Source: an uncultured Solirubrobacterales bacterium (lineage in GTDB: Bacteria; Actinomycetota; Thermoleophilia; Solirubrobacterales; 70-9). Taken from it: 64,000 bases of DNA. The notes under the pieces were generated by a model. That model saw only the letters and a program-made list of their open reading frames with translations. It was not told where the DNA came from and ran no database searches. The DNA lies in the NCBI GenBank assembly GCA_963805235.1, contig CAWDTF010000003.1, forward strand, positions 98,819 through 162,818, read 5' to 3'. The position numbers and the translations under genes are program-made. Below, piece after piece: positions 1 to 59,186 of the stretch (position 1 is its first letter; every line of letters starts with the position of its first letter).

Positions 1-1
1 C

Positions 2-925
2 AAGAACTCGCTCGGCGCCCTCTCCGAGGCCGCCAAGCTGGCCGGCGAGCTGGGCGCCGAGGCCTCCGCGCTGGTCGTTGGCGACATCGCCGACGACGCG
101 GCCGCCGGGCTCGGGAAGTTCGGCGTCACGAAGGTCTACCGCGCCAAGAGCGTTCCCGAGGGGCTCGCGCAGCCGATCGTGGACGCGATGGCGAAGGTGA
201 TCAGCGAGAACGACATCTCCTACGCGCTGTTCGGCGGCGGCCTGCTCGGCTTCGAGATCGGGGCCGGCCTCACCGCGCGCCTGAACGCCGGCGTGACGAT
301 GGAGGTGACCGCGGTCAACGTCCGGGACGGCAAGCTCGTCGCCGAGCGCCCGATCCTCCAGGACTCGGAGATCGCCGACGTCGGCTACGTCTCCGAGCCG
401 GGCATCATCATCGGCCGCCTCAACGCGTTCGACGAGAACGAGACGGGCGGCACGGCCGAGGTCGTGGACGTCGAGGTCGAGCTCTCCGAATGGTCCACCA
501 AGGCGAAGATGGTCACGCGGGGCGAGCAGCGCGGCGCCGACGTGAACATCGAGGACGCCGACATCCTCGTCGGCGGCGGCCGCGGGCTCGGGCAGAAGGA
601 GAACTTCGAGCTCGCCGAGCAGCTCGCCGAGGCGATGGGCGGAGCGGTGGCCGCGACCCGCGCGGTCGTGGACGCCGGCTGGTACCCCTACGCCGCGCAG
701 ATCGGCCAGACGGGCAAGACCGTCGCGCCGAAGCTGTACCTGGCCGCGGGCATCTCGGGCGCGATCCAGCACAAGGTCGGCATGCAGAACTCCGAGAACA
801 TCCTCGCCATCAACAAGGACCAGAACGCGCCGATCTTCGAGTTCTGCGACTTCGGCGTGGTCGGGGACCTGCACAAGATCGTCCCCAAGCTCACCGAGGC
901 GATCAAGGCGAAGAAGGGCGGCTGA
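2..925 (+). CDS. etfA: Electron transfer flavoprotein alpha subunit (5' end lies outside window)
   Basis: Frame is open from the window edge into ORF 179..925. ETF-alpha FAD-domain blocks [40 protein letters not shown]. Stop overlaps the next start (TGATG). Confidence 0.9.
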
Positions 926-2623
926 TGGGCCGCGCGCCGTCGGAGTTCCCGCCCCCCGTCGACTCGGCCGAGGAGTTCGTCACCGGCATCACCGACGCCG
1001 AGGACGAGCGCATCGAGGTCGGGGTGGCGATCGTCGGGGGCGGCCCCGCGGGCCTCGCCTGCGCGGTCCGGCTCGGGCAGATCCTCGAGGGAGAGCCCGA
1101 GCTGGCCGAGAAGCTCGGCGAGGTCCCGGTCGCGGTGATCGAGAAGGGCAAGACCTCGGGAGCGCACCTGCTCTCCGGGGCGAACATGCGACCGTCGGCG
1201 ATGGAGGAGCTGTTCCCCGACCTCGAGAAGTCCGAGTGGCCGGTTTACCAGGAGGTGGAGAAGGACGCCGTTTACCTGCTGACCAAGAAGGCGGCGCTGC
1301 CCCTGAAGCCGATGCCGCCCAACTTTCGCAACCACGGCAACTACGTCACCTCGGTCGCGAAGCTCGGCCGCTTCCTCCAGGAGAAGGCGGAGGAGCTCGG
1401 CGCCTACGTCCTCTCCGAGACCGCGGCCGACAAGCTGCTGGTGGAGGACCGCATCGTCAAGGGGCATCCGCTCGGGCGACAAGGGCCGCGGCAAGGGCGG
1501 CGAGGAGCTGGGCAACTTCGAGCCCGGCTCGGACGTGGTCGCCAAGGCGACGGTGCTGGCCGAGGGCACGCTCGGGCACCTGACCGGCGCGGCGCTGGAC
1601 TACTTCGACCTGCACGGCTCCGAGCCGCAGCGCTGGGAGCTGGGCGTGAAGGAGGTCTGGGAGGTCCCCGAGCCGCTCGACCGCGTCATCCACACGATGG
1701 GCTGGCCGCTGCGCAAGGCCGCGAAGTGGAACGAGTTCGGCGGCAGCTTCATCTACCCGATGGGAGAGGACAAGCTCTGCATCGGCCTCGTCGTCGGCCT
1801 CGATTACACCGACGCGACCTTCTCCTGCCACGACGCGCTGCAGGAGCTGAAGACCCACCCGTTCATCAAGGAGCTGCTCGACGGCGGCAAGCGGGTGGCC
1901 TGGGGCGCGAAGACGATCCCGTCCGGCGGCTACTGGTCCATGCCGAAGCGCCTGGCGGTGCCCGGCATGGTGATGGCCGGCGACTGCGTCTCGATGGTCA
2001 ACGTGCCGGAGCTCAAGGGCATCCACTACGCGATGCACGCCGGCATCTACGCGGCCGAGTCGATCGTCGAGTCGCTGAAGCAGGACTCGGTCAACTTCGA
2101 GAGCTACGAGCGGCGCGTGAAGAAGTCGTTGATCGAGGAGGACCTCTACCGCTCGCGCAACATGCGCCAGCCGTTCGACAAGGGCTTCTTCGTCGGCGGC
2201 GCGATCGCCAGTGCGATGACGATCACGAAGGGCGCCTTCCCCGGCGGCCACTGGTCCAGCGAGGACGACGCCGAGCACGAGATGACGCTCGGCAAGGCCT
2301 CGGAGAGCTATCCGAAGCCGGACAACGAGTACATCTTCGACAAGCTCAACTCCGTCTTCCTCTCGGGCAACGCGACGCGCGACGACGCGCCGAATCACAT
2401 CCGGATCCAGGAGCGGGTGCCGCGCGAGATCGCGCAGACCTGGGTCTCGATGTGCCCGGCGCAGGTCTACGAGATCCCCGACGACCAGCTCTCCTCCGGC
2501 GCGGAGACGGTGGACGTCCACGTCACCGCCTCGAACTGCGTCCAGTGCGGCGCGATCACGGCCAAGGGCGGCCGCCTGACGCTGCCCGAGGGCGGCGACG
2601 GGCCGCTCTACCAGGAGGTCTAG
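925..2623 (+). CDS. Electron-transfer flavoprotein:ubiquinone oxidoreductase (ETF-QO); one apparent 1-nt insertion near 1462
   Basis: FAD Rossmann [12 protein letters not shown] lies in the frame of ATG 925. The protein continues ...[38 protein letters not shown] in the frame of ORF 1535..2623. C-terminal block CPAQVYE...NCVQCGAI. Extra G in the GGGG run 1461-1464. Confidence 0.85.
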
Positions 2624-2632
2624 GCTCCCCGC

Positions 2633-3562
2633 GTGAGCGGGGAGAAGCCCAGGGTCGCCGTCTTCGCCCCGAGCCCGATGCTCGGGGTGACGATCGAGGC
2701 CCGAGGCGGCACCGGCGACGAAGTCCACTGCCACCCGGCGGGCCAGGGGGCCTGGCTGAGCAGGATGGCGGGGGAGCTGGGCGCGGAGCCCCTGCTCTGC
2801 TCGCTGGTCGGCGGCGAGACCGGGATGCTGCTCGAGGCGCTGCTGGGCACCCTGCCGGGCGAGCGGCGGCTGGTCCGCACCGCCGAGCCGAGCGGGTGCT
2901 ACGTGGTGGACCGGCGCTCGGGCGAGCGGCGGTTCGTCGCCCAGGCCCTGGCGGCCCCGCCCGACCGCCACGAGGCCGACGAGCTGGTGGCCGCGACGAC
3001 GGTCGCAGCCCGCGAGAGCGGGCTGCTCGCGCTCTGCAACCCCTATCCGGGGGACGCGATGCCGCTCGAGGCCTACGCCAACCTGGTCACCAACGCGCGC
3101 GCGGCGGGGGTCCCGGTGATCGCCGACCTCTCCACGCCGCGGGCCGACGCCGCGGCCGGCGCCGGCGCGGACCTGGTGAAGCTCAACGATTGGGAGCTCG
3201 CGGAGCTCGTCCGCGGACCGGTGGACCCGCCGCACCTGCTGAGGGCCGCCGCGCAGCGCCTGCGCGAGCTCGGCGCCGCGAACGTCCTCGTGACTCGAGC
3301 GGGCGATCCCGCTCTCGCGCTGCTGGGCGACGAGGCGTGGGAGCTCGTGCCGCCCAGGCTGGAGGCCGGCTCACGGGAGGGCTGCGGAGACTCGATGATG
3401 GGCGCGATCGCCGCCGCCCGGGCCGCCGGCCGCCCCCTGCAGGAGGCGCTGGTGATCGGAGCGGCGGCCGGCGCGGTCAACTTCCTGCACCACGGGCTCG
3501 GCACCGGGACGCGCCGGGAGGTCGAGGAGATGGCGGGGCAGGTCGAGCTGCGCCGGGCCTGA
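2633..3562 (+). CDS. PfkB-family sugar/phosphosugar kinase
   Basis: GTG start 10 nt after the ETF-QO stop. Ribokinase/PfkB-like blocks (NVLVTRAGDPA, GCGDSMMGAIAAARAAG, GAAAGAVN). Confidence 0.75.
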   Translation: MSGEKPRVAVFAPSPMLGVTIEARGGTGDEVHCHPAGQGAWLSRMAGELGAEPLLCSLVGGETGMLLEALLGTLPGERRLVRTAEPSGCYVVDRRSGERRFVAQALAAPPDRHEADELVAATTVAARESGLLALCNPYPGDAMPLEAYANLVTNARAAGVPVIADLSTPRADAAAGAGADLVKLNDWELAELVRGPVDPPHLLRAAAQRLRELGAANVLVTRAGDPALALLGDEAWELVPPRLEAGSREGCGDSMMGAIAAARAAGRPLQEALVIGAAAGAVNFLHHGLGTGTRREVEEMAGQVELRRA

Positions 3563-4315
3563 GCCCGGCGCTCGCCCGCGGGGGTCGCCGGGATCGTAGA
3601 AGGGCGGCTGCGGGCGCTCGCCGCGCAGGATCGCGGCCGGCGCCTCGCGGGCGATCCAGTCGATGTGGGCGCGGAGCGCGTCGAGTCCGCGCAGGGCGGC
3701 GATGCCCTCCGAGAGCCGCAGCGGCCTGCCGCCGTGGCTCGAGTGGGCGTCGCTGGCGACGATGTGGACCAGCCCGCGGCGTGCGAGGGCGAGCATCGCC
3801 TCGCGCGCCGGGCCGGCGGCGAGCAGGGCGGCGGTGACCTGGATCAGGGCGCCCGCAGCGGCGAGCTCGCCCAGCCTCTCGGCCAGGTCCGGCGAGGGAT
3901 GGCGCTCGGGATGCGCGATCAGGACCCCGAAGCCCCCCGCTTGAAGCTGCTCCGTTGTGCTTTGCAGGGAGTCGCCGAGCGGCCCGGGCGCCGGCTCGAG
4001 CAGGATCCAGCCGCCGCCTCCGAGCGATACCGCCTCCAGCTCGGCGCGGCCGAGGCCGGCGACGGCGGTCTCGGCCACCTCCCCGCCGGGCGCCACTTCG
4101 ACCGGGATGCCGGCGGCCCGCAGCGCGTCGTTCACGTCTGCGACCCTCTCCGGCAGCTCGTGGATGCGGACGTCGTGGTCGTGGCGGATGTGCGGGGTGG
4201 CGCAGACGGTCGCGACGCCGTCCGCCTCGGCCTGCCGCGCCAACGCGACGGAGTCCGCCATGTCCCGCGCCCCGTCGTCGATACCGGGCAGGATGTGGCA
4301 ATGCAGGTCGATCAC
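3371..4315 (-). CDS. PHP-domain protein-tyrosine phosphatase (CpsB/YwqE-like)
   Basis: MIDLHCHILPGIDDGA at the N-terminus, then ATPHIRH, IAHPERH and VASDAHS metal-ligand blocks. The last ~64 codons overlap the convergent PfkB gene. Confidence 0.75.
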   Translation of the reverse strand: MIDLHCHILPGIDDGARDMADSVALARQAEADGVATVCATPHIRHDHDVRIHELPERVADVNDALRAAGIPVEVAPGGEVAETAVAGLGRAELEAVSLGGGGWILLEPAPGPLGDSLQSTTEQLQAGGFGVLIAHPERHPSPDLAERLGELAAAGALIQVTAALLAAGPAREAMLALARRGLVHIVASDAHSSHGGRPLRLSEGIAALRGLDALRAHIDWIAREAPAAILRGERPQPPFYDPGDPRGRAPGSGPAQLDLPRHLLDLPARPGAEPVVQEVDRAGRRSDHQRLLQGAAGGPGGGDRAHHRVSAALP

Positions 4316-4365
4316 GACGAGGATCTTGGCGCAGCTCTGCCCGGCCGGGCGGGGGGAGGGGGCCG

Positions 4366-5016
4366 GTGAGCCGCAGGCGCGAGCCCGAGGGAGCGGTCGA
4401 GCTCGAGCTCCGCGACGGCTCCTGGGTCAGCATCCGGCCGATCCGGCCGGATGACGCGGCGGCCCTCGAGCGCGGGTTCGAAAGGCTGAGCGCAGACTCG
4501 CGCTACAAGCGCTTCCTGACCCCGGTCGAGCGGCTGACGGAGGGCCAGCTCCGCTACCTGACCGAAGTGGACCATCACACCCACGAGGCCCTGATCGCAT
4601 TTGACCTCGCGCACCCCGGCGAGGCCGTCGGCGTCGGCCGCTTCGTCCGCGACGCGGGCGATGACCGCGCGGAGGCCGCGGTCACGGTCGCCGACGACTG
4701 GCAGGGCCGCGGCCTCGGGACGGCGCTGACCCGGATGCTGGCGGGGAGGGCGGCGGCGGAGGGCATTCGCTGCTTCACCGCGCTGCTGCTGGCCGAGAAC
4801 GTGGAGATGGCCGCGCTGCTGGACGACGTGGGAGATGTCGAGGTGACCGATCGCGAAGTGGGCACGGTCCAGGTCGACGTCCCGCTCTCGAGCGAGATCA
4901 CGGACGACCCCGCGCTGCAGAGGGTGCTGCGCGCCGTGGTGTCCTCCCCGCTCGAGCTCGCATCGGTGCCGGGCGAGGGCGTCGAGGGAGCGGCCCCGCC
5001 CGACTCCCGCTCCTAG
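4366..5016 (+). CDS. GNAT-family N-acetyltransferase (Pat-type acetyltransferase domain)
   Basis: In-frame GTG 4366 preceded by GGGGGGAGGGGG. Blocks IRPIRPDDAAALERGFERLS..SRYKRF, VDHHTHEALIAF, WQGRGLGTAL. Confidence 0.75.
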   Translation: MSRRREPEGAVELELRDGSWVSIRPIRPDDAAALERGFERLSADSRYKRFLTPVERLTEGQLRYLTEVDHHTHEALIAFDLAHPGEAVGVGRFVRDAGDDRAEAAVTVADDWQGRGLGTALTRMLAGRAAAEGIRCFTALLLAENVEMAALLDDVGDVEVTDREVGTVQVDVPLSSEITDDPALQRVLRAVVSSPLELASVPGEGVEGAAPPDSRS

Positions 5017-5021
5017 ATGGA

Positions 5022-5405
5022 CTAGCCGGAGCCGGCGACGAAGGTCGCGACGTCCTCGGCGTCCTCGCCCTGGACGAGGTTGGCCGGCATCGTGCCGCTG
5101 CCGAGGCCGCCGGTCTCGATCGCGCGCAGCACCTGGGCCCTGTCCACCTGCGCCTCGTCGAGGTCGGGCCCGATCTGGCCCTGGGTGCCCGCCGCGTCGA
5201 ACGTGTGGCAGGAGCCGCAGTTCTGGACGAACAGGTCACGGCCGTTCTCCTCGGAGGGAGAGAGCGGCTGCTCGGCGTCCTGGGGGGCCGGCGTCGTCGC
5301 GGCCTGCCCGGTCGTGCCCGTGGTGTCGTCCTCGCCCGTGGTCCCGCAGCCGGCGAGGACGGCGAAGGCGACGAGGGCGACGGCGATGGGTACCAGCCTC
5401 GGCAT
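5022..5405 (-). CDS. Lipoprotein-type c-type cytochrome
   Basis: Internal ATG at 5405 gives signal plus lipobox MPRLVPIAVALVAFAVLAGC. Haem motif CGSCH. Distal Met context GSGTMPAN. Confidence 0.8.
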   Translation of the reverse strand: MPRLVPIAVALVAFAVLAGCGTTGEDDTTGTTGQAATTPAPQDAEQPLSPSEENGRDLFVQNCGSCHTFDAAGTQGQIGPDLDEAQVDRAQVLRAIETGGLGSGTMPANLVQGEDAEDVATFVAGSG

Positions 5406-5529
5406 GGACCGAACGCTACCCGCGATCGGGTGGGCGCTAACGCCCCGGGACGTCAGTAGTTCTCCGCACGCCGAATCCGTGAACCTCGCCGATGCGACCG
5501 GGCCTCCTCCCGAATACGCTCGTTCCCTG

Positions 5530-5796
5530 ATGCCAGCCAGCCCCGCACAGACCGGCGTCAAGTGGGCCGGCGAGCTTCAGGACGGCACGATGCAGGGCCT
5601 CGCCGCCCTGCGGATGCTGCTGGCGTCGGCCATCAACCAGCGCTCCCACGAGGCGCTCGAGCGCGCCGCCTCCGAGGCGATCAGCCAGCTCGAGGACGAG
5701 ATCGTCGAGTTGCGCGAGATGATCGCTGAGATGCGCGGCCAGGGGCCGCCCCTGGGGCACCGTCAGACGTCGATCAGCCCGCGGTCGAGCGCGTAG
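5530..5796 (+). CDS. Small ORF with a HisKA_3-like dimerisation (DHp) block in which the phospho-acceptor His is Gln; start uncertain (ATG 5530 or 5404)
   Basis: AGELQDGTMQGLAALRMLL ... IVELREMIAEMRG mirrors the ELHDxxxQxL ... vRxlixxLR layout of NarL-type kinases. It fills an otherwise gene-free gap. Its 3' end overlaps the convergent regulator by 34 nt. No SD seen. Confidence 0.3.
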   Translation: MPASPAQTGVKWAGELQDGTMQGLAALRMLLASAINQRSHEALERAASEAISQLEDEIVELREMIAEMRGQGPPLGHRQTSISPRSSA

Positions 5797-6428
5797 CGGA
5801 CCAGCTCCGAACGGCTGGTAAGGGCGAGCTTCTGCTGGATGTGGGCCCGGTGCGACTCGACGGTGCGGACGCTGAGGAAGAGGGTCTTGGCAATCTCGTT
5901 GTTGGTGTGCCCCAGGGCGATCAGCCTCAGCACCTCCAGCTCGCGCCCGGAGAGGTCGTCGGGAGAGGCGGCCTCGGGCTCAGCGGCGAGCCGTGCGCCC
6001 AGCTCCGGCTGGAGATAGGTCTTGCCCTCGGCGGCGAGGCGCACGGCCTTGACCAGCTCGTCGCTGGCCGCCTCCTTGAGGATGTAGCCGAGCACCCCGG
6101 CCTGCAGCGCCTCGCGCGCAGCGGAGGTCTCCTCCTGCATCGTCAGCATCACGATCCGGGTCTCCGGCGAGGCGCCGCGGATCTCGGGGATCGCGGCCAG
6201 CCCCGAGCCGCCGGGCATGTTGATGTCGAGGATCATCACGTCGGGCCGGTGCCCGCCCGCGTAGCGGATCGCGTCCCGCGCGTCGCCGGCCTCGGCCACG
6301 ACCTCGATGCCCTCCTCGCCGTCGAGCAGCATCCGCAGCGCGGTGCGCACGACGGCGTGGTCATCAGCAAGGACGACCCTGATACGCCTCTGCGCAACAG
6401 CGGTCCTTTCGCCTCCCTTTGGCGGCAT
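5763..6428 (-). CDS. NarL/FixJ-family response regulator (receiver + LuxR HTH); no kinase adjacent
   Basis: Receiver blocks VLADDH, VMILDINMPG, GYILK. HTH LSGRELEVLRLIALGHTNNEIAKTLFLSVRTVESH. Confidence 0.9.
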   Translation of the reverse strand: MPPKGGERTAVAQRRIRVVLADDHAVVRTALRMLLDGEEGIEVVAEAGDARDAIRYAGGHRPDVMILDINMPGGSGLAAIPEIRGASPETRIVMLTMQEETSAAREALQAGVLGYILKEAASDELVKAVRLAAEGKTYLQPELGARLAAEPEAASPDDLSGRELEVLRLIALGHTNNEIAKTLFLSVRTVESHRAHIQQKLALTSRSELVRYALDRGLIDV

Positions 6429-6501
6429 CGCCGAACAGAGTAGTCACGCCCGCCCCGGCGCGCCGCAACTTCCGGGCTACCCAGTGTTGGGTGGATCGAG
6501 G

Positions 6502-8307
6502 ATGACGGAGGGGAAGGCCCTACAGGTCAGGACGATCGCCCGGGCGGCCGCGGCGGCCCTGGTCGCCGCCGGGCTTACCGCGGGCCTCGCGCTCGACCCG
6601 CCGGAGGGGGATGCCAAGCGCAAGCCGCCCAAGCAGAAGCGGCCGAACATCGTGCTGGTGATGAGCGACGACCAGGCGGCCGAGACCCAGCGCTTCATGC
6701 CGCGCACCAATGAGCTGCTCGGCCGCGGCGGCGTCACCTTCACGAACAACTTCGTCAGCTACCCGCTCTGCTGCCCCTCGCGGGCGACGTGGCTCACCGG
6801 GCAGTACGCCCACAACCACGGCGTCCGCGGCAACCAGCCTCCGGCCGGCGGCTACAGCAAGCTCAACAAGTCCACGACGCTGCCGGTCTGGCTGCAGCGC
6901 AGCGGCTACTACACGGGTCACATCGGCAAGTTCCTGAACGGGTACGGCAACACGTCACCCGACACGGAGGTGCCGCCGGGCTGGAGCGAGTGGTACGGCG
7001 CCCTCGACGACCCCGACGCCTTCACCGGGGGCACCTACACGATGTACGGGTACACGCTGAACGAGAACGGCGCGGTCGTCCACTACGGCTCGACCCCCGA
7101 CGTGGTCGATCCGGCGACCTACCAGACCGACGTCTACGCCGCCAAGGCAGAGGACTTCGTCCGCCGGCGAGCTCCGAGCCGCAAGCCGTTCTTCCTCTCG
7201 GTCGCCACCCTCGCCTCGCACACCGAGGCCGGCGCGGCGTGCAACTGCGCCGGCAACAACCCGCGCGCCGCCCCGCGCCACGAGGGGGCGCTGGCGAGCG
7301 AGTTGCCGCTGAGCTCCCCCTCCTTCAACGAGGCCGACGTCTCCGACAAGCCCGCGGCGATCCGAGACCTGACGCCGATGACGCCCGCTCAGCAGGAGAC
7401 CGTCCGCGAGCGCTACCGGGCGCAGGCGGAGTCGCTGCTGGCCGTGGACGAGCTCGTGGGCCGCGTCGCCGCAGCGCTCAAGGCCAAGGGCGAGTTGAAG
7501 AACACGGTGATCATCTACACCGCCGACAACGGCTTCTTCCACGGGCAGCACCGCGTCCGTCAGGGGAAGGTGCGGCTCTACGAGGAGTCCATCCGGGTTC
7601 CGCTGCTGATCAGGGGGCCGGGGCTGCCGCAGGGCAACCGCCGCGCCCAGCCCACGGCCAACGTGGACCTGGCGCCGACGATCGCCGACTTCGCGAACGC
7701 CCGGCCGCTCCGCAGGCAGGACGGGCGCTCGCTGGTCTCCCTCGCGCGGGACAAGCTGCTCTGGCCGGGCAGGCCGATCGGCCTCGAGGCCTTCTTCAAC
7801 TCCGACCCCGACGAGGACCCCGAGACACCGCCGACGAACTACCGCGCGGTGCGCACCGACCGCTACCTCTACGCCGAATACGGGACGGGGGAGCGGGAGC
7901 TGTACGACCTGCTCACCGACCCCTACGAGCTGCAGAGCCGCCACTCCGACCCCTCCCTGGCGGCGGTCCGGGCGGCACTCGACCGGCTGTTGGACCGCAC
8001 GGCTGGCTGCGCCGGAAGCGGTTGCGCAGCGAGGCCGAAGCTGAAGCTCGCGCTCGGTTTCCGCAAGGGGGCGGGCTGCGTCGCGTCGGGGGTCCGGATC
8101 AGGGTCAAGGGCGGCGATGCCCGAGGAGTCGTGGCCGCGAGCTTCTACGCGAACCGCCGCAAGGCGGGCTCCGACGGCTCGGCGCCGTTCGCCCGGAAGG
8201 CCGGTGCGCGGCTGCTGCGCGGAGCGCGCAACCGCCTTGCGGTGAACGCGACCCTGCTCGACGGCCGCCGTGCGACGGTCGCCGCGAAGCTGCCCGGCGC
8301 CTGCTGA
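6502..8307 (+). CDS. Secreted formylglycine-dependent sulfatase
   Basis: Signal-like N-terminus. NIVLVMSDDQ metal site. C-x-P-x-R motif within PLCCPSRATWLTGQY. GHIGKF and IYTADNGF blocks. Confidence 0.85.
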   Translation: MTEGKALQVRTIARAAAAALVAAGLTAGLALDPPEGDAKRKPPKQKRPNIVLVMSDDQAAETQRFMPRTNELLGRGGVTFTNNFVSYPLCCPSRATWLTGQYAHNHGVRGNQPPAGGYSKLNKSTTLPVWLQRSGYYTGHIGKFLNGYGNTSPDTEVPPGWSEWYGALDDPDAFTGGTYTMYGYTLNENGAVVHYGSTPDVVDPATYQTDVYAAKAEDFVRRRAPSRKPFFLSVATLASHTEAGAACNCAGNNPRAAPRHEGALASELPLSSPSFNEADVSDKPAAIRDLTPMTPAQQETVRERYRAQAESLLAVDELVGRVAAALKAKGELKNTVIIYTADNGFFHGQHRVRQGKVRLYEESIRVPLLIRGPGLPQGNRRAQPTANVDLAPTIADFANARPLRRQDGRSLVSLARDKLLWPGRPIGLEAFFNSDPDEDPETPPTNYRAVRTDRYLYAEYGTGERELYDLLTDPYELQSRHSDPSLAAVRAALDRLLDRTAGCAGSGCAARPKLKLALGFRKGAGCVASGVRIRVKGGDARGVVAASFYANRRKAGSDGSAPFARKAGARLLRGARNRLAVNATLLDGRRATVAAKLPGAC

Positions 8308-8338
8308 CGCCTGCCGCGGAGCGGAACGGCGGCCCAGC

Positions 8339-8344
8339 TAGAAT
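8339..8344 (+). promoter_or_regulatory. -10-like hexamer TAGAAT, 8 nt upstream of the rpmE ATG (short or no leader)
   Basis: TAGAAT read directly. No Shine-Dalgarno between it and ATG 8353. Confidence 0.35.
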
Positions 8345-8352
8345 CGAATCCG

Positions 8353-8565
8353 ATGAAGGCCGAGATACATCCCGACTATGTCCTCTCGCACGTCCACTGC
8401 TCGTGCGGCAACGACTTCTACACGCGCTCCACGAGCCCTGAGCTGCACGTCGAGATCTGCTCCCAGTGCCACCCGTTCTACACGGGCAAGCAGAAGCTGG
8501 TCGACACCGGCGGGCGGGTCGAGCGCTTCCGCCGCCGCGCTGCCAAGCGTCAGCGCGGGGAGTAG
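8353..8565 (+). CDS. rpmE: 50S ribosomal protein L31
   Basis: 70 aa. MKAEIHPDY, Cys pairs CSCG / [14 protein letters not shown]. Confidence 0.95.
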
Positions 8566-8577
8566 CGCGGTCGCCTG

Positions 8578-9627
8578 ATGGGCGCGCCCGGCTCCAACGG
8601 CGACCTCGACGGCGCCGGGCCCCCGGCTGAGAGCGCGCGCCCCGCGCCGCAGCGCGCGCCCGCCGCGCAGCAGGCAGAGCGGATGCCGGACGGCCGACCC
8701 GTGGCGACCAAGGACGCGCCGATCGGGGGCCAGGCCGTGCTCGAGGGCGTGATGATGCGCGGCGTCTCGACCTGGGCCGTCGCCGTCCGCAACCCCGAGG
8801 GCGAGGTCGAGGTCACCTCCGAGCCGATCGTCTCCTGGGCGAAGCGGCACCGCGTCCTGCGCCTGCCGGTGATCCGAGGGGTTGTCGCGCTCGGCGAGTC
8901 GCTCAAGATCGGCTTCAAGGCGCTGGCGATCTCGGCCAACGCCCAGCTCGAGGAGGACGAGGAGGGCGAGAAGGAGGAGATCGGCGGCTGGATGTGGGGC
9001 CTCACGATCGCGCTCTCGATGGCCCTCGCCGTCGGGCTCTTCTTCGTGATCCCCGTCGGCGCCACCAGCCTGATCAAGGACTGGCTCGGCTCGGCGCTGC
9101 TCTTCTGGCTGGTCGAGGGGATCCTGCGGACCCTCATCTTCATCGGCTACATCGTCGCGATCAGCCGCCTGCCCGACCTGCGCCGCGTCTTCGAGTACCA
9201 CGGCGCCGAGCACAAGACGATCTCCTGCTTCGAGGCCGGCGACGAGCTGAAGCCCGAGCGCGCCCAGATCTACTCCCGGCTGCACCCGCGCTGCGGCACG
9301 AGCTTCCTCCTGATCGTGATGGTGCTCGCGATCTTCGTCTTCGCGCCGATCGGCCTGCCTGAGTGGTACTGGCTGCTCGCCTCGCGCATCCTCGGCATCC
9401 CCTTGATCGCGGGCCTCTCCTACGAGGTCATCAAGTGGGCCGGCAAGAACCGCGGCAAGCGCTGGGTCCGCGCCCTGATGTGGCCCGGCCTGATGCTCCA
9501 GAACCTCACCACCCGCGAGCCCGACCTCGACCAGCTCGCGGTCGCGATCCGCTCCCTGGAGGAGGTTCTCGCCAACGAGGACCCCGACCAGGCGAAGAAG
9601 GACGCGCCGATCGAGATCGTCGCCTGA
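8578..9627 (+). CDS. DUF1385 (YqhQ-like) membrane protein
   Basis: GGQAVLEGVMMRG, EYHGAEHK and HPRCGTSF blocks plus TM segments. Usual neighbourhood of rpmE/prfA/prmC. Start uncertain. Confidence 0.8.
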   Translation: MGAPGSNGDLDGAGPPAESARPAPQRAPAAQQAERMPDGRPVATKDAPIGGQAVLEGVMMRGVSTWAVAVRNPEGEVEVTSEPIVSWAKRHRVLRLPVIRGVVALGESLKIGFKALAISANAQLEEDEEGEKEEIGGWMWGLTIALSMALAVGLFFVIPVGATSLIKDWLGSALLFWLVEGILRTLIFIGYIVAISRLPDLRRVFEYHGAEHKTISCFEAGDELKPERAQIYSRLHPRCGTSFLLIVMVLAIFVFAPIGLPEWYWLLASRILGIPLIAGLSYEVIKWAGKNRGKRWVRALMWPGLMLQNLTTREPDLDQLAVAIRSLEEVLANEDPDQAKKDAPIEIVA

Positions 9628-18557: not shown

Positions 18558-19843
18558 TTGAGCGAGCTGCCCGACGATTTCCAGACCGCGCCCCTGGCTG
18601 AGGTCGACCCCGACATCGCGCGCGTGCTCGACCGCGAGCTCGCCCGCCAGCAGGGGACGCTGGAGATGATCGCCTCGGAGAACTTCGTGCCCCAGGCGGT
18701 GCTCGACGCCGCCGGCTCGGTGCTGACCAACAAGTACGCCGAGGGCTACCCCGGCAAGCGCTACTACGGGGGCTGCGAGGAGGTGGACGTCGCCGAGCAG
18801 CTCGCGATCGACCGCGCCAACGACGCTGTTCGGGGCCGAGCACGCCAACGTCCAGCCGCACGCCGGCGCGCAGGCCAACAACGCCGCCTACATGGCGATG
18901 CTGGAGCCCGGCGACACGATCATGGGGATGGCGCTCGACCACGGCGGCCACCTCAGCCACGGGATGAAGCTGAACGTCTCGGGCAAGCTCTACCACGTCG
19001 TGCCGTACCACGTGCGCCGCGAGGACCTGCGCGTGGACATGGACGAGGTCGCGAGCCCTGGCGAAGGAGCACAAGCCGAAGGTGATCGTCGCCGGCTGGT
19101 CCGCCTACCCGCGGCAGCTCGACTTCGCCGCCTTCCGCGAGATCGCCGACTCGGTCGGCGCCCGGCTGATGGTGGACATGGCCCACTTCGCCGGCCTGGT
19201 CGCGGCGGGGGAGCACCCCAACCCGGTCGAGCACGCGGACGTCGTCACGACGACGATCCACAAGACGCTCTGCGGCCCCCGCAGCGGGATGATCCTCTGC
19301 CGCGAGGAGCTGGCCAAGGACATCAACCGCTCGGTCTTCCCGGGCCAGCAGGGCGGGCCGCTGATGCACATCATCGCCGCGAAGGCGGTGGCGCTGAAGA
19401 TCGCCGCCTCCGAGGAGTTCAGGGCGCGCCAGCGCCAGACGGTCGCCAACGCCCGCGCCCTGGCCGAGGGCCTGCTCGAGGCGGGCGTGGACGTGCTCAC
19501 CGGCGGCACCGACGTCCACCTGGTCCTCACCGACCTGACGCCGACCGGCGTCTTCGGCAAGGAGGCGGAGCTGCGGCTGGAGGAGGTCGGCATCACGGTC
19601 AACCGCAACGCGATCCCCTTCGACGAGCGCCCGCCGATGGACCCCTCGGGCCTGCGCATCGGGACGCCGGCGCTGACCACCCGCGGGCTGGGCGAGGACG
19701 AGATGCGCGAGATCGCCGCGGTCATCGGCGCCGCGCTCGGCGACGACTTCGAGTCGCGAGAAGTCGGCGCCTGCTCGAGCGGACCCGCGGCGCTGATGGA
19801 GCGCTACCCGCTCTACCCGCAGCTCTCGGCGGCGGCGGTCTAG
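18558..19843 (+). CDS. glyA: Serine hydroxymethyltransferase; two apparent 1-nt insertions (about 18825 and 19057)
   Basis: TTG start 7 nt after GAGGAG. MIASENF and [15 protein letters not shown] in frame a; [18 protein letters not shown] in frame b; [10 protein letters not shown] ... [15 protein letters not shown] (PLP Lys) in frame c. Confidence 0.9.
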
Positions 19844-19848
19844 CCGGC

Positions 19849-20618
19849 GTGGAGCTGAACGCGGCGGAGGCCGGGCGGCTCCGCAGGCTCAACCTGATCG
19901 CGGCCTGCGCCCACGCCGCGCAGGCCCTGGCGATCCTGCTGCTCGCCGACGGCGCCTCGCTGCCGGTGACGGCCGAATACCTGACCGGGCCACCGGCGGG
20001 CGGGCGACCGGGGCTCGACCGAGCTGTTCGAGCTGCCGTTCGGCCCCGCGGTCGCCGCCTTCCTGCTGCTCGCCGCGGCCGACCATCTCGTCGTCGCGAT
20101 GGGGGCGGGGCGCCGCTGGTACGAGCGGAACCTGACCGCCGAGCAGAACCCTGCCCGCTGGTACGAGTATTCGCGTCAGCGCCTCGCTGATGGTCGTCCT
20201 GATCGCGATGCTGAGCGGCATCACCGAAGCCACCGCGCTGATCGCGATCTTCGGCGCCAACGCCGCGATGATCCTCTTCGGCATGGTGATGGAGCGGCTG
20301 AACCGGCCGGGCGCGCCGGTGGACTGGCGCCCCTTCGCCTACGGCTGCGTGGTCGGCGCCTTCCCCTGGCTCGCGATTGGACTCACGATCGCCACGGCGG
20401 AGTCGGAGGGAGGGACCGTCCCGGGCTTCGTGATCGCGATCTTCGTCTCGCTGCTCGTCCTCTTCTTCAGCTTCGCCGCGAACATGTGGCTGCAGTACCG
20501 GCGGCGAGGGGCCTGGGCCTCCTACCTGCACGGCGAGCGCGCCTACATCTGGCTCAGCCTGATCGCGAAGAGCGCCCTCGCCTGGCAGGTATTCGGCGGG
20601 GTGCTGGCGGGAGGCTGA
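19849..20618 (+). CDS. Heliorhodopsin (about 255 aa, 7 TM) split over three frames by two apparent 1-nt insertions (about 20005 and 20173)
   Basis: [80 protein letters not shown] (retinal-Lys block). GTG start 5 nt after the glyA stop. Confidence 0.8.
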
Positions 20619-20623
20619 GCAAG

Positions 20624-21656
20624 GTGAGGATTTGGGTGGACTGCACCGCCGCCGCGCACCCGCTGGTGCTGCGGCCGATCATCGAGCGGCTCGAGGCCGG
20701 CGGCCACGAGGTCGAGGTGACCGCGCGCCGCTACGGGCAGACGGAGGGGATCCTCGAGCGCCTCGGGATCCCGTACACCAGCGTCGGCGAGCACGGCGGC
20801 GCCTCCACCCTCGGCAAGGCCGGCGCGCTGGCGGGCCGCAGCGCGCGGCTCTGGCGCTGGGCGCGGGGGAGGGGCTTCGGCCTGGCGCTGGCGCACGGCT
20901 CGGTGGACATCGCGCTCGTCTCGAAGGCGCTGCGGGTCCCGCTGGTGCAGATGAACGACTACGAGCACGCGGGCCTGCAGCGCAGGATCAGCTTCCGCGC
21001 GGCGCGGCTGGTGCTGGCTCCCGACGCGATCCCCGTCGAGGCGATGGAGCGCTGCGGCGCGAGCCGGGACCGGCTCTTCCGCTACCCGGGGCTGAAGGAG
21101 GACTACTACCTCGCCGAGTTCGAGGCCGACCGGGCCGTGCTCTCGGAGCTGGCGCTCGAGCGCGAGCGGCGTGCTCGTCGTCATGCGCCCGCCGCCCGAG
21201 ACCTCGGAGTACCACGCGCAGAACCCGCTGTACGAGGCCGTGCTCGACCGGCTCGCTCGCGAGAGCGAGGCGACGGCCGTCGTGGTCCCGCGGACCGAGG
21301 CCCAGCGCGAGCGGCTGCGGGCCCGCGGCGCGCGGCCGACCGGCGCGGGCAGCGCGCGGCTCGTGGTGCCCGAGCGGGCGATCGACGCCCAGAGCCTGAT
21401 CGCCTACGCCGACCTGGTGGTCAGCGCCGGCGGCACGATGAACCGGGAGGCGGCGGCGCTCGGCACCCCGGTCTACACGATCTTCAGCGGCGCGATGGGG
21501 GCCGTGGACGAGCGCCTGATCGCGGCCGGCCTGCTGCGCCCGCTCGCCGACCCGGAGGCGATCGAGCTGGCGAAGATGAGCCGCGAGCGCACCGGTCCGC
21601 TGCACCCGCGCGACCCGCAGCTGCTGGCTGACGCGGTCCTCCGCGCAGCGGGCTGA
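20624..21656 (+). CDS. DUF354-type (GT-B-like) protein; one apparent 1-nt insertion near 21170
   Basis: GTG 5 nt after the heliorhodopsin stop. VRIWVDCTAAAHPLVLRPII... continues as VLVVMRPPPETSEYH ... VVSAGGTMNREAAALGTPV in the frame of ORF 21171..21656. Confidence 0.7.
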
Positions 21657-21691
21657 CCTGCTCCGCCGGTTCCATACGGGACAATCCCGCC

Positions 21692-22974
21692 ATGCGGTCC
21701 CTGGACTCGTGGGACGCGGTCTGGGCCTTCGTGTTCGCCGCGTCCGTCGCCTGGATGCTCGTGCCCCTGGCCGAGGCGATCGCGCGGCGGATCGGGGCGA
21801 TGGACATGCCGAGCGACCGCGGCCTGCACGACACGCCGACGCCGAAGCTGGGCGGGCTCGCGATCCTGGTCGGCGTGCTCGGCGCCGGGGCGATCTGGCT
21901 GCCCTGGGACGCCGAGACGCGCTCGATCCTCGGCGGCGCGGCCGCGATCACGCTGCTCGGCGTGCTCGACGACGTCTTCGAGCTGCCCGCGCTCCCCAAG
22001 CTGGCCGGCCAGATCGGCGCGGCGATGATCCCGGTCGTGCTCGGCGACGTCCGCGTGGACGTGACCACGCTGCCGTTCGTCGGCGGCTTCGACCTCGGCT
22101 GGATGGCCTATCCGCTGACGATCTTCGGGATCGTCGCGGTGATCAACATCATCAACTTCATCGACGGCGTGGACGGCCTCGCCTCGGGCGTCTGCGTGAT
22201 CTCGGCGGCGACCTTCGCGATCATCGCGATCTCGCTCGACCGCTTCGAGGCGGGGGTGCTGGCGGCGATCACAGCAGGAGGCGCGCTCGGCTTCCTGCGC
22301 CACGGCTTCCCCCCGGCCTCGAGCTTCATGGGGGACACCGGGTCGAACCTGCTCGGCTACCTGCTGGCGACGATCGCGGTGCAGGGCTCCCTGAAGACGA
22401 ACGCGGCGCTCGCCCTGGCGCTGCCGCTCCTCGTCCTCGCCGTCCCGATCCTGGACACGAGCTTCGTGGTCGCAAAGCGCCTCAAGTACCGCCAGCCGAT
22501 CTACCACGCGCGACCGCTGGCACTTCCACCACCGCATGGCGAACATCGGGTTCGACGCGCGGCGCACGCTCAAGTACCTCTACGGCTGGACGCTGGTCCT
22601 GGCCCTGCTGGCCCTCGCCCTGCGCTTCGTCCCCTACAGCGACGACCGCGGCAACTTCGATCCCGCTCTGGACGGTGGTGATGGCGCTCGTCCTGATCGG
22701 GGCGCTCGTCGCCAGCGTCTACGTGATCCAGGTGCTCGAGATCCTGAAGCTGCGCCACTTCAGGCTGCGCCAGCGCCTCGGCATCCTCACCCGCGGCGCC
22801 GGCGCGCCGGCGCCGGTCGAGGCCGAGGTGGACGCGGCGGTCAAGCGCGAGCTCGAGACCGGCGAGTACGCGGCGGTCAACCCGGAGACGGGCGAGATGT
22901 CCAGCGTCGACCCGGACACCGGCGAGATGGAGCCGGTCAGCGCGCCTCCCCCCGGGCGCGACGGGCCTTACTGA
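21692..22974 (+). CDS. Polyprenyl-phosphate HexNAc-1-phosphate transferase (WecA/MraY family, GT4); two apparent 1-nt insertions (about 22511 and 22665)
   Basis: PKLGGLAI, NFIDGVDGLASG, FMGDTGSN blocks. ...PIYHA/DRWHFHHRMAN... then ...NFDP/LWTVVMALVL... in successive frames. Confidence 0.85.
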
Positions 22975-23040
22975 TTTCTGGGTATACTGCTCCGCCCGCG
23001 GGTCGCCGCCCGCGATCGCTGATCGAACGGAGGAGCAGAG

Positions 23041-23868
23041 GTGAGAAACATGAATCGCGCGCTCGTGGCCGTCGCCGCCGCCTGCGCGCTCGCGACCGCC
23101 GCGGCGCCCGCGAGCGCCGCCGAGAACGACTTCACGCTCGGGGGCCGCTCGTGCAAGCTGATCGGCGTGCCGGCCGCGGCGCCGGTCGGGACCGGCGCCT
23201 GCCCGGGCGTCAGGCCCGGGGCCGTGGTCAACTCCGAGACGGGGCAGTGCACGCATGAACTTCCTGTTCACCGGGTCTGACGGGCGCCGCTACATCGGCA
23301 CCGCAGGGCACTGCATCCTCGGCGAGAGCCCCGTCGGCGGAGACGCAGGCGAGCAGTCCTGGGCGCCCGGCAGCGGGCCCGAGGCGACGGACTCCGAGGG
23401 CGAGCGGATCGGGGAGTTCGCCTACGCGGTGCTCCAGGACCCGAAGGACTTCGCGCTGATCCGGCTTGACCCCGGCGTCGAGGCGAGCCCGCAGATGTGC
23501 CACTTCGGCGGGCCGACGGGCGTCAACTCCGACCTGACCTCCTCGCCGACGGTGCTCCAGCACTTCGGCAACGGGCTGGCGGTCGGCTCGGCGCTGCCGG
23601 CGCGGACCCACGTCGCGCTGAGCATGCCCGACCCGGACCACGTGTTCGCGATGGGCGCGGCCGCCCGGGCGACTCGGGCAGCGGCGTGATCAGCGCCGAC
23701 GGCCGCGCGCTCGGGGTGCTGGTGACCGTCGGGCTCCACAGCGGCGGCATCGGGACCGGCGGGCTCGACGCCGGTGCGGTCGGGATCACCCGCATCGCCC
23801 CCCAGGAGGCCCGCGCCGAGCAGGTGCTCGGGACCGCGCTGGCGCTCGAGACCGCGCCGGCCCTGTAG
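23041..23868 (+). CDS. Secreted chymotrypsin-fold (S1) serine protease; two frame breaks (about 23254 and 23665)
   Basis: Signal peptide MNRALVAVAAACALATAAAPASA. Triad contexts IGTAGHC, DFALIRL, (P)GDSGSGVIS across three frames. Confidence 0.75.
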
Positions 23869-58066: not shown

Positions 58067-59186
58067 ATGGCCGAGGCGCTTTCCGTGGAGCAGGTCCCGG
58101 CGCGGCTCGCCGAGATCCGCGATCAGTTGAAGCTGCTCGCGGACTACCTTTGACCCCGCTTCCCTGAAGCAACAGGTCGAGGCGCTCGAGTCCGAGATGC
58201 AGCGTCCGGGGTTCTGGGACGACCAGGCCACGGGCGCTCGGACCTCTGAGCAGCACGCGCGCGCGCAGCGCCGGCTGCAGGGGTTCGAGCGGCTCACCTC
58301 CGACGTCGACGACCTCGATGAGCTCGCGGAGCTGGCGACCGAGGACGAGGAGATGGCGGGGGAGCTCGCCGGCCAGGTCGCCTCGATCGAGGCGCGCCTC
58401 GCGGAGCTCGAGGAGGAGCGCCTCTTCTCGGGCCCCTACGACGCCGGCGACGCCGTGGTCACGGTCAACGCGGGCGCCGGCGGCACCGACTCCCAGGACT
58501 GGGCCGAGATGCTGCTGCGCATGTACCTGCGCTGGGCCGAGCGCCGCGGCTTCAAGGTCGAGATGACGGAGGCCTCCCCGGGGGAGGAGGCCGGGCTGAA
58601 GTCCGCGACCTTCATCGCCCGCGGCGAGAACGCCTACGGCCTCTTCGCGGCCGAGCGCGGCGTCCACCGCCTGATCCGGATCTCGCCGTTCGACTCGTCC
58701 GGCCGCCGCCACACGAGCTTCGCCCAGCTCGACGTCGCGCCGCTGGTGGAGGGGGACGTCGAGGTCGAGGTGGACGAAGGCGACCTCCGGGTGGACACCT
58801 ACCGCGCGTCCGGCGCCGGCGGCCAGCACGTCAACAAGACCGATTCGGCGGTCCGCATCACCCACGTCCCCACCGGGCTCGTCGTCCAGTGCCAGAACGA
58901 GCGCTCGCAGACCCAGAACAAGGCGGTCGCGATGCAGCTCCTGCGCAGCCGGCTGCTGGAGCTGGCCGAGCGCGAGCGGGCGGAGGAGCTGGCCGAGGAG
59001 CGCGGAGAGGTGAAGTCGGCGGAGTGGGGCTCGCAGATCCGCAGCTACTTCCTGCACCCCGACCAGCGGGTCAAGGACCACCGGACCGGCTTCGAGATGG
59101 GCGACGCCCAGCGCGTCCTCGACGGCGACCTCGACGGCTTCGTGCGCGAGTACCTGAACCAGGCCGCCGGCGCGAACGGGAAGTAG
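58067..59186 (+). CDS. prfB: Peptide chain release factor 2, requiring the programmed +1 ribosomal frameshift at CTT TGA C
   Basis: ORF0 MAEALSVEQVPARLAEIRDQLKLLADYL-stop (58067-58153). The +1 frame continues DPASLKQQVEALESEMQRPGFWDD into ORF 58197..59186. SPF motif (RISPFDS) and GGQ (SGAGGQHVN). Confidence 0.92.
58148..58154 (+). other. prfB: prfB autoregulatory +1 recoding site CTT-TGA-C
   Basis: Exact CUU UGA C heptamer at the junction of the two prfB frames. Confidence 0.9.

Follow-up and report, generated by a model that had tools for sequence, protein, structure and literature searches.

The gene at positions 19849-20618 (+) of the window, by which I mean the whole 64-kb stretch of DNA that was analysed, encodes a heliorhodopsin (HeR) that no single open reading frame spans. 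The longest listed piece (20190-20618, 142 aa) is also the only sizeable one, in agreement with the initial annotation, which had reported that no ORF shows the gene. Three-frame translation, running through frame 0 (19849-20004), frame 1 (20006-20173) and frame 2 (20175-20618), gives one 255-aa protein that starts at GTG 19849, 5 nt past the stop codon of glyA, and ends at TGA 20616-20618. Its source is an uncultured soil member of the Solirubrobacterales (Thermoleophilia, Actinomycetota). The parts of the gene are given below, with equivalent residues of 48C12, the founding heliorhodopsin, which comes from an actinobacterial fosmid (PDB 6su3, 6su4, 6uh3).

19849-20004 (+): first piece of HeR, codons 1-52, with the GTG start, cytoplasmic N-terminus, TM-A and start of the A-B beta-hairpin
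19912-19914 (+): CAC, His22 in TM-A (48C12 H23)
20005 (+): first +1 frame break, an extra C (GGCGGG[C]GAC) without counterpart in five of five intact orthologues
20006-20173 (+): second piece, codons 53-108, with the remainder of the hairpin, TM-B, the B-C loop and RWYEYS
20084-20086 (+): CAT, His79 in TM-B (48C12 H80)
20165-20167 (+): GAG, the counterion Glu106 in RWYEYS (48C12 E107)
20174-20175 (+): second surplus base (TCGC[G]TCAGC), one of these two bases being extra by orthologue alignment
20176-20618 (+): third piece, codons 110-255 and TGA, TM-C to TM-G
20568-20570 (+): AAG, the Schiff-base Lys240 in the AKS block of TM7 (48C12 K241)

Removing the G at 20174/20175 yields Leu109, as in the closest relatives, and removing the C yields Val at this position, as in L001 and L082. 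With its two +1 breaks the gene, as deposited, has no uninterrupted start-to-stop ORF. The 142-aa fragment exists as a public protein record (P0121, in NCBI and ENA, from a 426-kb contig), so the frameshift was already present in the deposited assembly. When the gene is aligned with five intact orthologues, the junctions fall within 1-2 nt of where they had been annotated (about 20004/20006 and 20173/20175), and all of the sequence blocks quoted at that time were recovered by three-frame translation.

Identity of the protein

The frame-corrected protein matches the Pfam model PF18761 from end to end (1-242/242, E=1.2e-91, 306.8 bits with the cutoff at 26.7), which puts the match far above chance and confirms the original assignment to the heliorhodopsins. 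The NCBIfam equivalog model for 'heliorhodopsin HeR' (NF038020) is likewise matched over its full length (1-244/244, E=5e-86, 288.3 bits with the cutoff at 100), and even the uncorrected 142-aa piece alone reaches 188 bits to PF18761. A search of the PDB returned 48C12 (E=1e-63; entries 6su3, 6uh3 and 9ljj) as well as TaHeR (E=4e-56; entry 6is6). The PDB alignment runs without gaps across both frame junctions, and each break is therefore a one-base event.

An AlphaFold2 model of the protein (pLDDT 81.4) has seven helices and an A-B beta-hairpin with strands 37-45 and 54-63. The length, initially annotated as about 255 aa, is exactly 255 aa once two bases are removed. When searched with Foldseek, the model matched 6su3 at E=2.8e-18 (TM 0.93, rmsd 1.7 A), compared with E=1.7e-4 and TM 0.68 for the best type-1 rhodopsin; the type-1 matches share 9-19% identity. 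Lys240 is invariant in 17 relatives. Lysine and arginine are distributed unevenly, with 14 in the N-terminus and the B-C, D-E and F-G loops and 1 in the A-B, C-D and E-F loops and C-terminus, and the positive-inside rule accordingly predicts an inverted, N-in topology. In the cytoplasmic loops of this predicted arrangement, Arg occurs four times in B-C, three times in D-E and four times in F-G. The corrected protein thus has all of the sequence-testable features that define a heliorhodopsin.

That the match reflects chance or mistaken similarity, the protein being either no heliorhodopsin or a type-1 rhodopsin, is extremely improbable, as two HMMs matched from end to end (E=1e-91 and E=5e-86) speak against chance, Pfam gives PF18761 alone and no bacteriorhodopsin-like family model, and the structure search finds HeRs at E=1e-18 and type-1 rhodopsins only at E of 1e-4 or above; I found no support for either version and reject both on the HMM and structure scores.

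Gene neighbourhood

HeR lies within an actinobacterial housekeeping block, preceded by rpmE, prfA, prmC, sua5, a TetR gene, an R2-like gene and glyA, and followed by a DUF354 gene, a WecA-like GT4, an ECF sigma/anti-sigma pair and atpBEFHAGDC. Visual inspection of the translation, together with Pfam hits on the counterparts in L089 and L100, gave the identity of the ATP-synthase genes (27-34 kb). The genes closest to HeR are the following.

18558-19843 (+): glyA (serine hydroxymethyltransferase, SHMT), directly upstream of HeR, with five single-base insertions
20624-21656 (+): DUF354-family gene, 5 nt downstream of HeR, with an insertion at about 21170
21653-22974 (+): glycosyl transferase family 4 (GT4, WecA/MraY-like), with insertions at about 22511 and about 22665

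Because glyA and the DUF354 gene flank HeR at 5 nt on each side, the three are probably co-transcribed. A scan for sigma-70 promoters and terminators over 18.3-23.4 kb returned no promoter and one terminator-like site, at chance level. Beyond GT4, at 22983-23802 (+), the window has some 0.8-0.9 kb that L001 and L100 lack and that L089 has in fragmented form. The encoded protein has a signal peptide and the motifs TAGHC and GDSGSG, which look like those of a trypsin-like serine protease, but gives no Pfam hit.

No HeR neighbourhood conserved across Solirubrobacterales was found among 80 GTDB loci, and only one of them (L001) has SHMT, DUF354 or GT4 near HeR. The glyA-HeR-DUF354-GT4 order also occurs in L081, L082, L099 and L100-L102, to the extent of their contigs. 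The neighbours sampled elsewhere include TerC, an ABC-2 permease, fasciclin, VWA and an amine-oxidase-like flavoprotein; TerC, which belongs to a known HeR neighbour group, is the gene upstream of HeR in L004. The glyA-HeR-DUF354 arrangement is a neighbourhood outside the described HeR groups.

I found no retinal or carotenoid genes within the 64-kb window, and the earlier remark that biosynthesis genes of this kind were not seen here holds over its whole length. In another Solirubrobacterales MAG, at locus L006, the gene some 330 nt upstream of HeR (4048-5670, +) encodes a 541-aa protein of the flavin amine-oxidase family (PF01593, E=3e-15). Phytoene desaturases belong to this family, which makes a carotenoid link possible.

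Single-base insertions across the window

HeR is not the only broken gene. Compared with three independent relatives, the window alone carries single-base insertions, and alignment with L099 and L100 agrees. Relative to L001, the interval 18.5-22.9 kb has 11 insertions of 1 nt that are left uncompensated, and no such deletion; relative to L100, an intact NCBI MAG that is 96.8% identical and in which all genes are full length, 11.9-29.4 kb contains 26 single-base insertions and 8 single-base deletions. By comparison with L100, these lesions break ApbE, glyA, HeR, DUF354, GT4, atpB and atpF. The breaks outside HeR and its nearest neighbours are listed here.

About 1465: break in ETF-QO, an insertion
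12628: break in ApbE, a single-base lesion
atpB: breaks at more than 8 sites, single-base insertions
28305: break in atpF, an insertion
About 43200: probable break in an FtsX permease, from the GC3 frame path
44-48 and 56-58 kb: further broken genes, from the GC3 frame path

In glyA, single-base insertions at about 18824 and about 19054 break the frame. Three more at the 3' end (19750-19795), at about 19758, 19768 and 19788, span about 33 nt within the last 90 nt and together restore the frame, so that the ORF stays open with about 11 residues garbled relative to ESQKSGLLERTRAL in the relatives. A compensated insertion error of this type is invisible as a frameshift. DNA alignment with relatives also places a single-base insertion in the spacer between HeR and DUF354. 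Across the junctions of the broken genes the Pfam domains continue straight on, as seen for SHMT (1-399/399), DUF354, ApbE and ETF-QO.

The lesions are clustered at 12.0-12.7, 18.8-22.7, 26.4-28.3, 43.2-48.1 and 56.5-58.2 kb, those past 38 kb being called from the GC3 frame path alone. The intervals 28.4-43.2 and 48.1-55 kb, each 7-15 kb in length, are free of lesions. Mismatch to relatives is about 6% in the clusters at 18.8-22.7 and 26.4-28.3 kb and less than 1% outside, and the insertions show no association with homopolymers. The frame change in prfB (release factor 2) is one that should be real, as 58146-58152 (+) is a canonical programmed +1 site, CTT TGA C.

Other assemblies do not share the lesions. 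A short-read contig that is 99.4% identical to window positions 1-8791 (L084) lacks the insertion that splits ETF-QO, and in nine short-read contigs all of the atpB and atpF insertions are absent. Taken together, none of the insertions in glyA, DUF354, the WecA-like gene, atpB, atpF, ApbE or ETF-QO occurs in the NCBI MAGs and short-read contigs that are 95-99% identical. A contig of the same species in long-read style (L083/L089, ENA contig_128097, about 98% identical) has insertions elsewhere, with atpA and atpG fused and atpD split. The name of this sister contig and the many MFD MAGs among the relatives hint that these may be Nanopore/Flye/Medaka assemblies resembling those of PMC12313526.

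Orthologues

Actinomycetota and Chloroflexota from soil and fresh water commonly have heliorhodopsins, and at least 3,171 of the 8,000 candidates scored are HeR homologues at E<=1e-20. The nearest orthologues are 255 aa long with 93-95% aa identity. All seven full-length members of the 90%-identity cluster are intact at 255 aa, and the five that come from NCBI carry the name heliorhodopsin HeR there; the family and its near-identical orthologues are thus already known and named. The closest relative (P0128, 95% aa) is an unnamed protein from a Logan assembly, and the closest intact copy is 95% identical in aa and 94.7% in nt. Within the 90%-identity cluster no copy identical to the corrected HeR was found, the best being 95%. 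Two pattern scans of metagenome contigs, which spanned the second break and allowed the optional base, gave no intact HeR of the same strain, in a collection evidently without the JGI sample from which L081 derives.

Origin of the frame breaks

I conclude, with a probability of about 0.85, that this is an ordinary, very probably functional Solirubrobacterales gene whose frame is broken by two single-base consensus errors of the long-read type. The frameshifts are most probably consensus or assembly errors because the same type of lesion hits the adjacent housekeeping genes, and does so in an assembly-specific manner. Lesions that are assembly-specific, biased towards insertions, blind to essentiality and coincident with poor consensus are typical of consensus error, not of biology. 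The significance implied by calling the gene 'hidden' is not upheld, as insertions also split glyA, atpB and others, and near-identical orthologues have already been named. The corrected ORF of 768 nt has a dN/dS of 0.10-0.24 against five relatives, compared with 0.12-0.16 for pairs of intact genes, and of the 8 window-specific substitutions 5 are synonymous and 3 conservative, with none at codon position 2. These values show purifying selection on the corrected gene, with no sign of decay.

The main alternative is that the strain truly gained two +1 insertions and that HeR is a real pseudogene, dead or dying. The frameshifts do stand in the deposited assembly, where the 142-aa fragment (P0121) is a public record, and a sister strain about 98% identical lacks HeR altogether, which would make the gene dispensable in the species and true decay conceivable. 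However, the same lesion occurs five times in glyA and again in the WecA-like GT4, atpB, atpF, ApbE and ETF-QO, and the joint loss of these housekeeping genes is implausible. Natural gene decay in bacteria is biased towards deletions, opposite to the local ratio of 11 insertions to 0 deletions. Furthermore, the other long-read assembly of the species has its lesions at different sites and the short-read assemblies have none, while HeR itself contains no stop codons and shows no relaxed selection (dN/dS 0.10-0.24), with 8 lineage-specific substitutions set against 2 indels. I therefore consider a genuine pseudogene unlikely. Decay specific to HeR can be rejected, as glyA, with 5 lesions in about 1.3 kb, is hit at least as densely as HeR, with 2 in 768 nt.

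A further alternative is that the breaks are genuine and are bypassed, either by a programmed +1 shift of the ribosome or by slippage during transcription. It has in its favour that both breaks require a +1 shift and that the window has one genuine programmed +1 site, in prfB, but it is highly improbable and effectively refuted by the orthologue alignment and the absent motif: neither 20005 nor 20175 has a slippery or hungry-codon/stop motif, frame 0 remains open until 20188, the intact orthologues have no frameshift at either position, and dozens of breaks of the same kind interrupt unrelated genes of the window.

If the breaks are consensus errors, as I favour, the consequences reach beyond HeR. 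Since clustered single-base insertions fragment many of its genes, the contig is unreliable for gene content, and its gene calls, pseudogene counts and 'missing' functions should not be relied upon before polishing.

Strain variation and possible function

The locus corresponding to window positions 19844-20626 in L089 (2620-2760) lacks HeR: only a 29-nt spacer separates the stop codon of glyA from the DUF354 start. HeR may thus be a presence/absence polymorphism between near-identical strains (about 98%), or L089 may have suffered an assembly collapse. If the absence is real, loss in the L089 strain would be the parsimonious reading, because more distant relatives hold HeR at the same spot.

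What the protein would do can be proposed from its family. HeR would be a seven-TM retinal protein with a cytoplasmic N-terminus, in which all-trans retinal is bound to Lys240 as a protonated Schiff base and Glu106 acts as the single counterion. Light would isomerise the retinal, and the proton would pass to the group formed by Glu106, His22 and His79 and not across the membrane. A long-lived photointermediate would then alter the Arg-rich cytoplasmic loops and so modulate a partner protein, making HeR a sensor or regulator rather than a pump. Retinal would be supplied by genes beyond the window or by the environment. The photochemistry, the regulatory role and the existence of a partner are all suggested by analogy with other members of the family.

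From its placement in this small clade between glyA and a DUF354/WecA-like pair for cell-envelope glycosyl transfer, and from its absence in a near-identical strain, one could speculate that HeR serves as a strain-variable light switch on one-carbon metabolism, through SHMT, or on envelope glycan synthesis, through DUF354/WecA. I regard this as a long shot, though if true, either link would constitute a new class of HeR partner. The scientific weight of the locus is small, given a common family and orthologues of 93-95% identity that have already been named. Biologically, just two features could guide a search for partners, namely the unusual glyA-HeR-DUF354 arrangement and the presence/absence polymorphism.

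Comparison with known heliorhodopsins

Among the closest known proteins are those listed in NCBI as 'heliorhodopsin HeR [Solirubrobacterales bacterium]' (P0122-P0124 and P0126, for example MGZ5320120.1; loci L100-L102), which are 255 aa long and 93-94% identical in aa. L100-L102 have the glyA-HeR-DUF354-GT4 order in common with the window, inside the same block from rpmE-prfA-prmC-sua5 to atp. They differ in that their HeRs are intact ORFs whereas the HeR of the window has two extra bases, and in lacking the extra gene of about 0.9 kb that the window has after GT4.

48C12 is 47% identical (116 of 247 aligned positions), and the alignment passes both frame junctions without a gap. The initial annotation had described a high similarity over TM3-TM7; the 47% applies to the whole length and not to those helices alone. 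H23, H80, R104, W105, E107 and Y108 of 48C12 correspond to H22, H79, R103, W104, E106 and Y107 here, and E149, E230, S237, K241 and W246 to E148, E229, S236, K240 and W245. The residues that had been singled out as the two conserved His (His22 and His79), the counterion Glu of RWYEYS (Glu106) and the Schiff-base Lys of AKS accordingly align with H23, H80, E107 and K241. As blocks, RWxEYS and AKSALAWQ are both conserved. The predicted fold matches that of 48C12, including the A-B beta-hairpin, and the topology is predicted to be N-in. In the alignment the pocket and cavity differ by S76A, S112A, Q213M and W163A, substitutions that might shift the colour or kinetics of this HeR. The genomic context also differs, and the present gene is frame-broken in its assembly.

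Partners have been demonstrated for three other members of the family, namely glutamine synthetase for AbHeR (PMC9529153), photolyase for TfHeR (PMC9769723) and an ABC transporter for OcHeR (PMC11109279), and the conserved positive intracellular loops have been proposed to bind them (PMC9529153, PMC9769723, PMC11109279). The ten frequent groups of HeR neighbours are GS, NAD+ synthetase, photolyase, MerR, TerC, ABC, SDR, alpha/beta hydrolase, DUF2177 and DUF2238 (PMC11109279). The present HeR shares with AbHeR, TfHeR and OcHeR its family, Arg-rich cytoplasmic loops and tight, operon-like packing, but its neighbours, SHMT and DUF354/WecA-like, fall outside the ten listed groups (PMC11109279).
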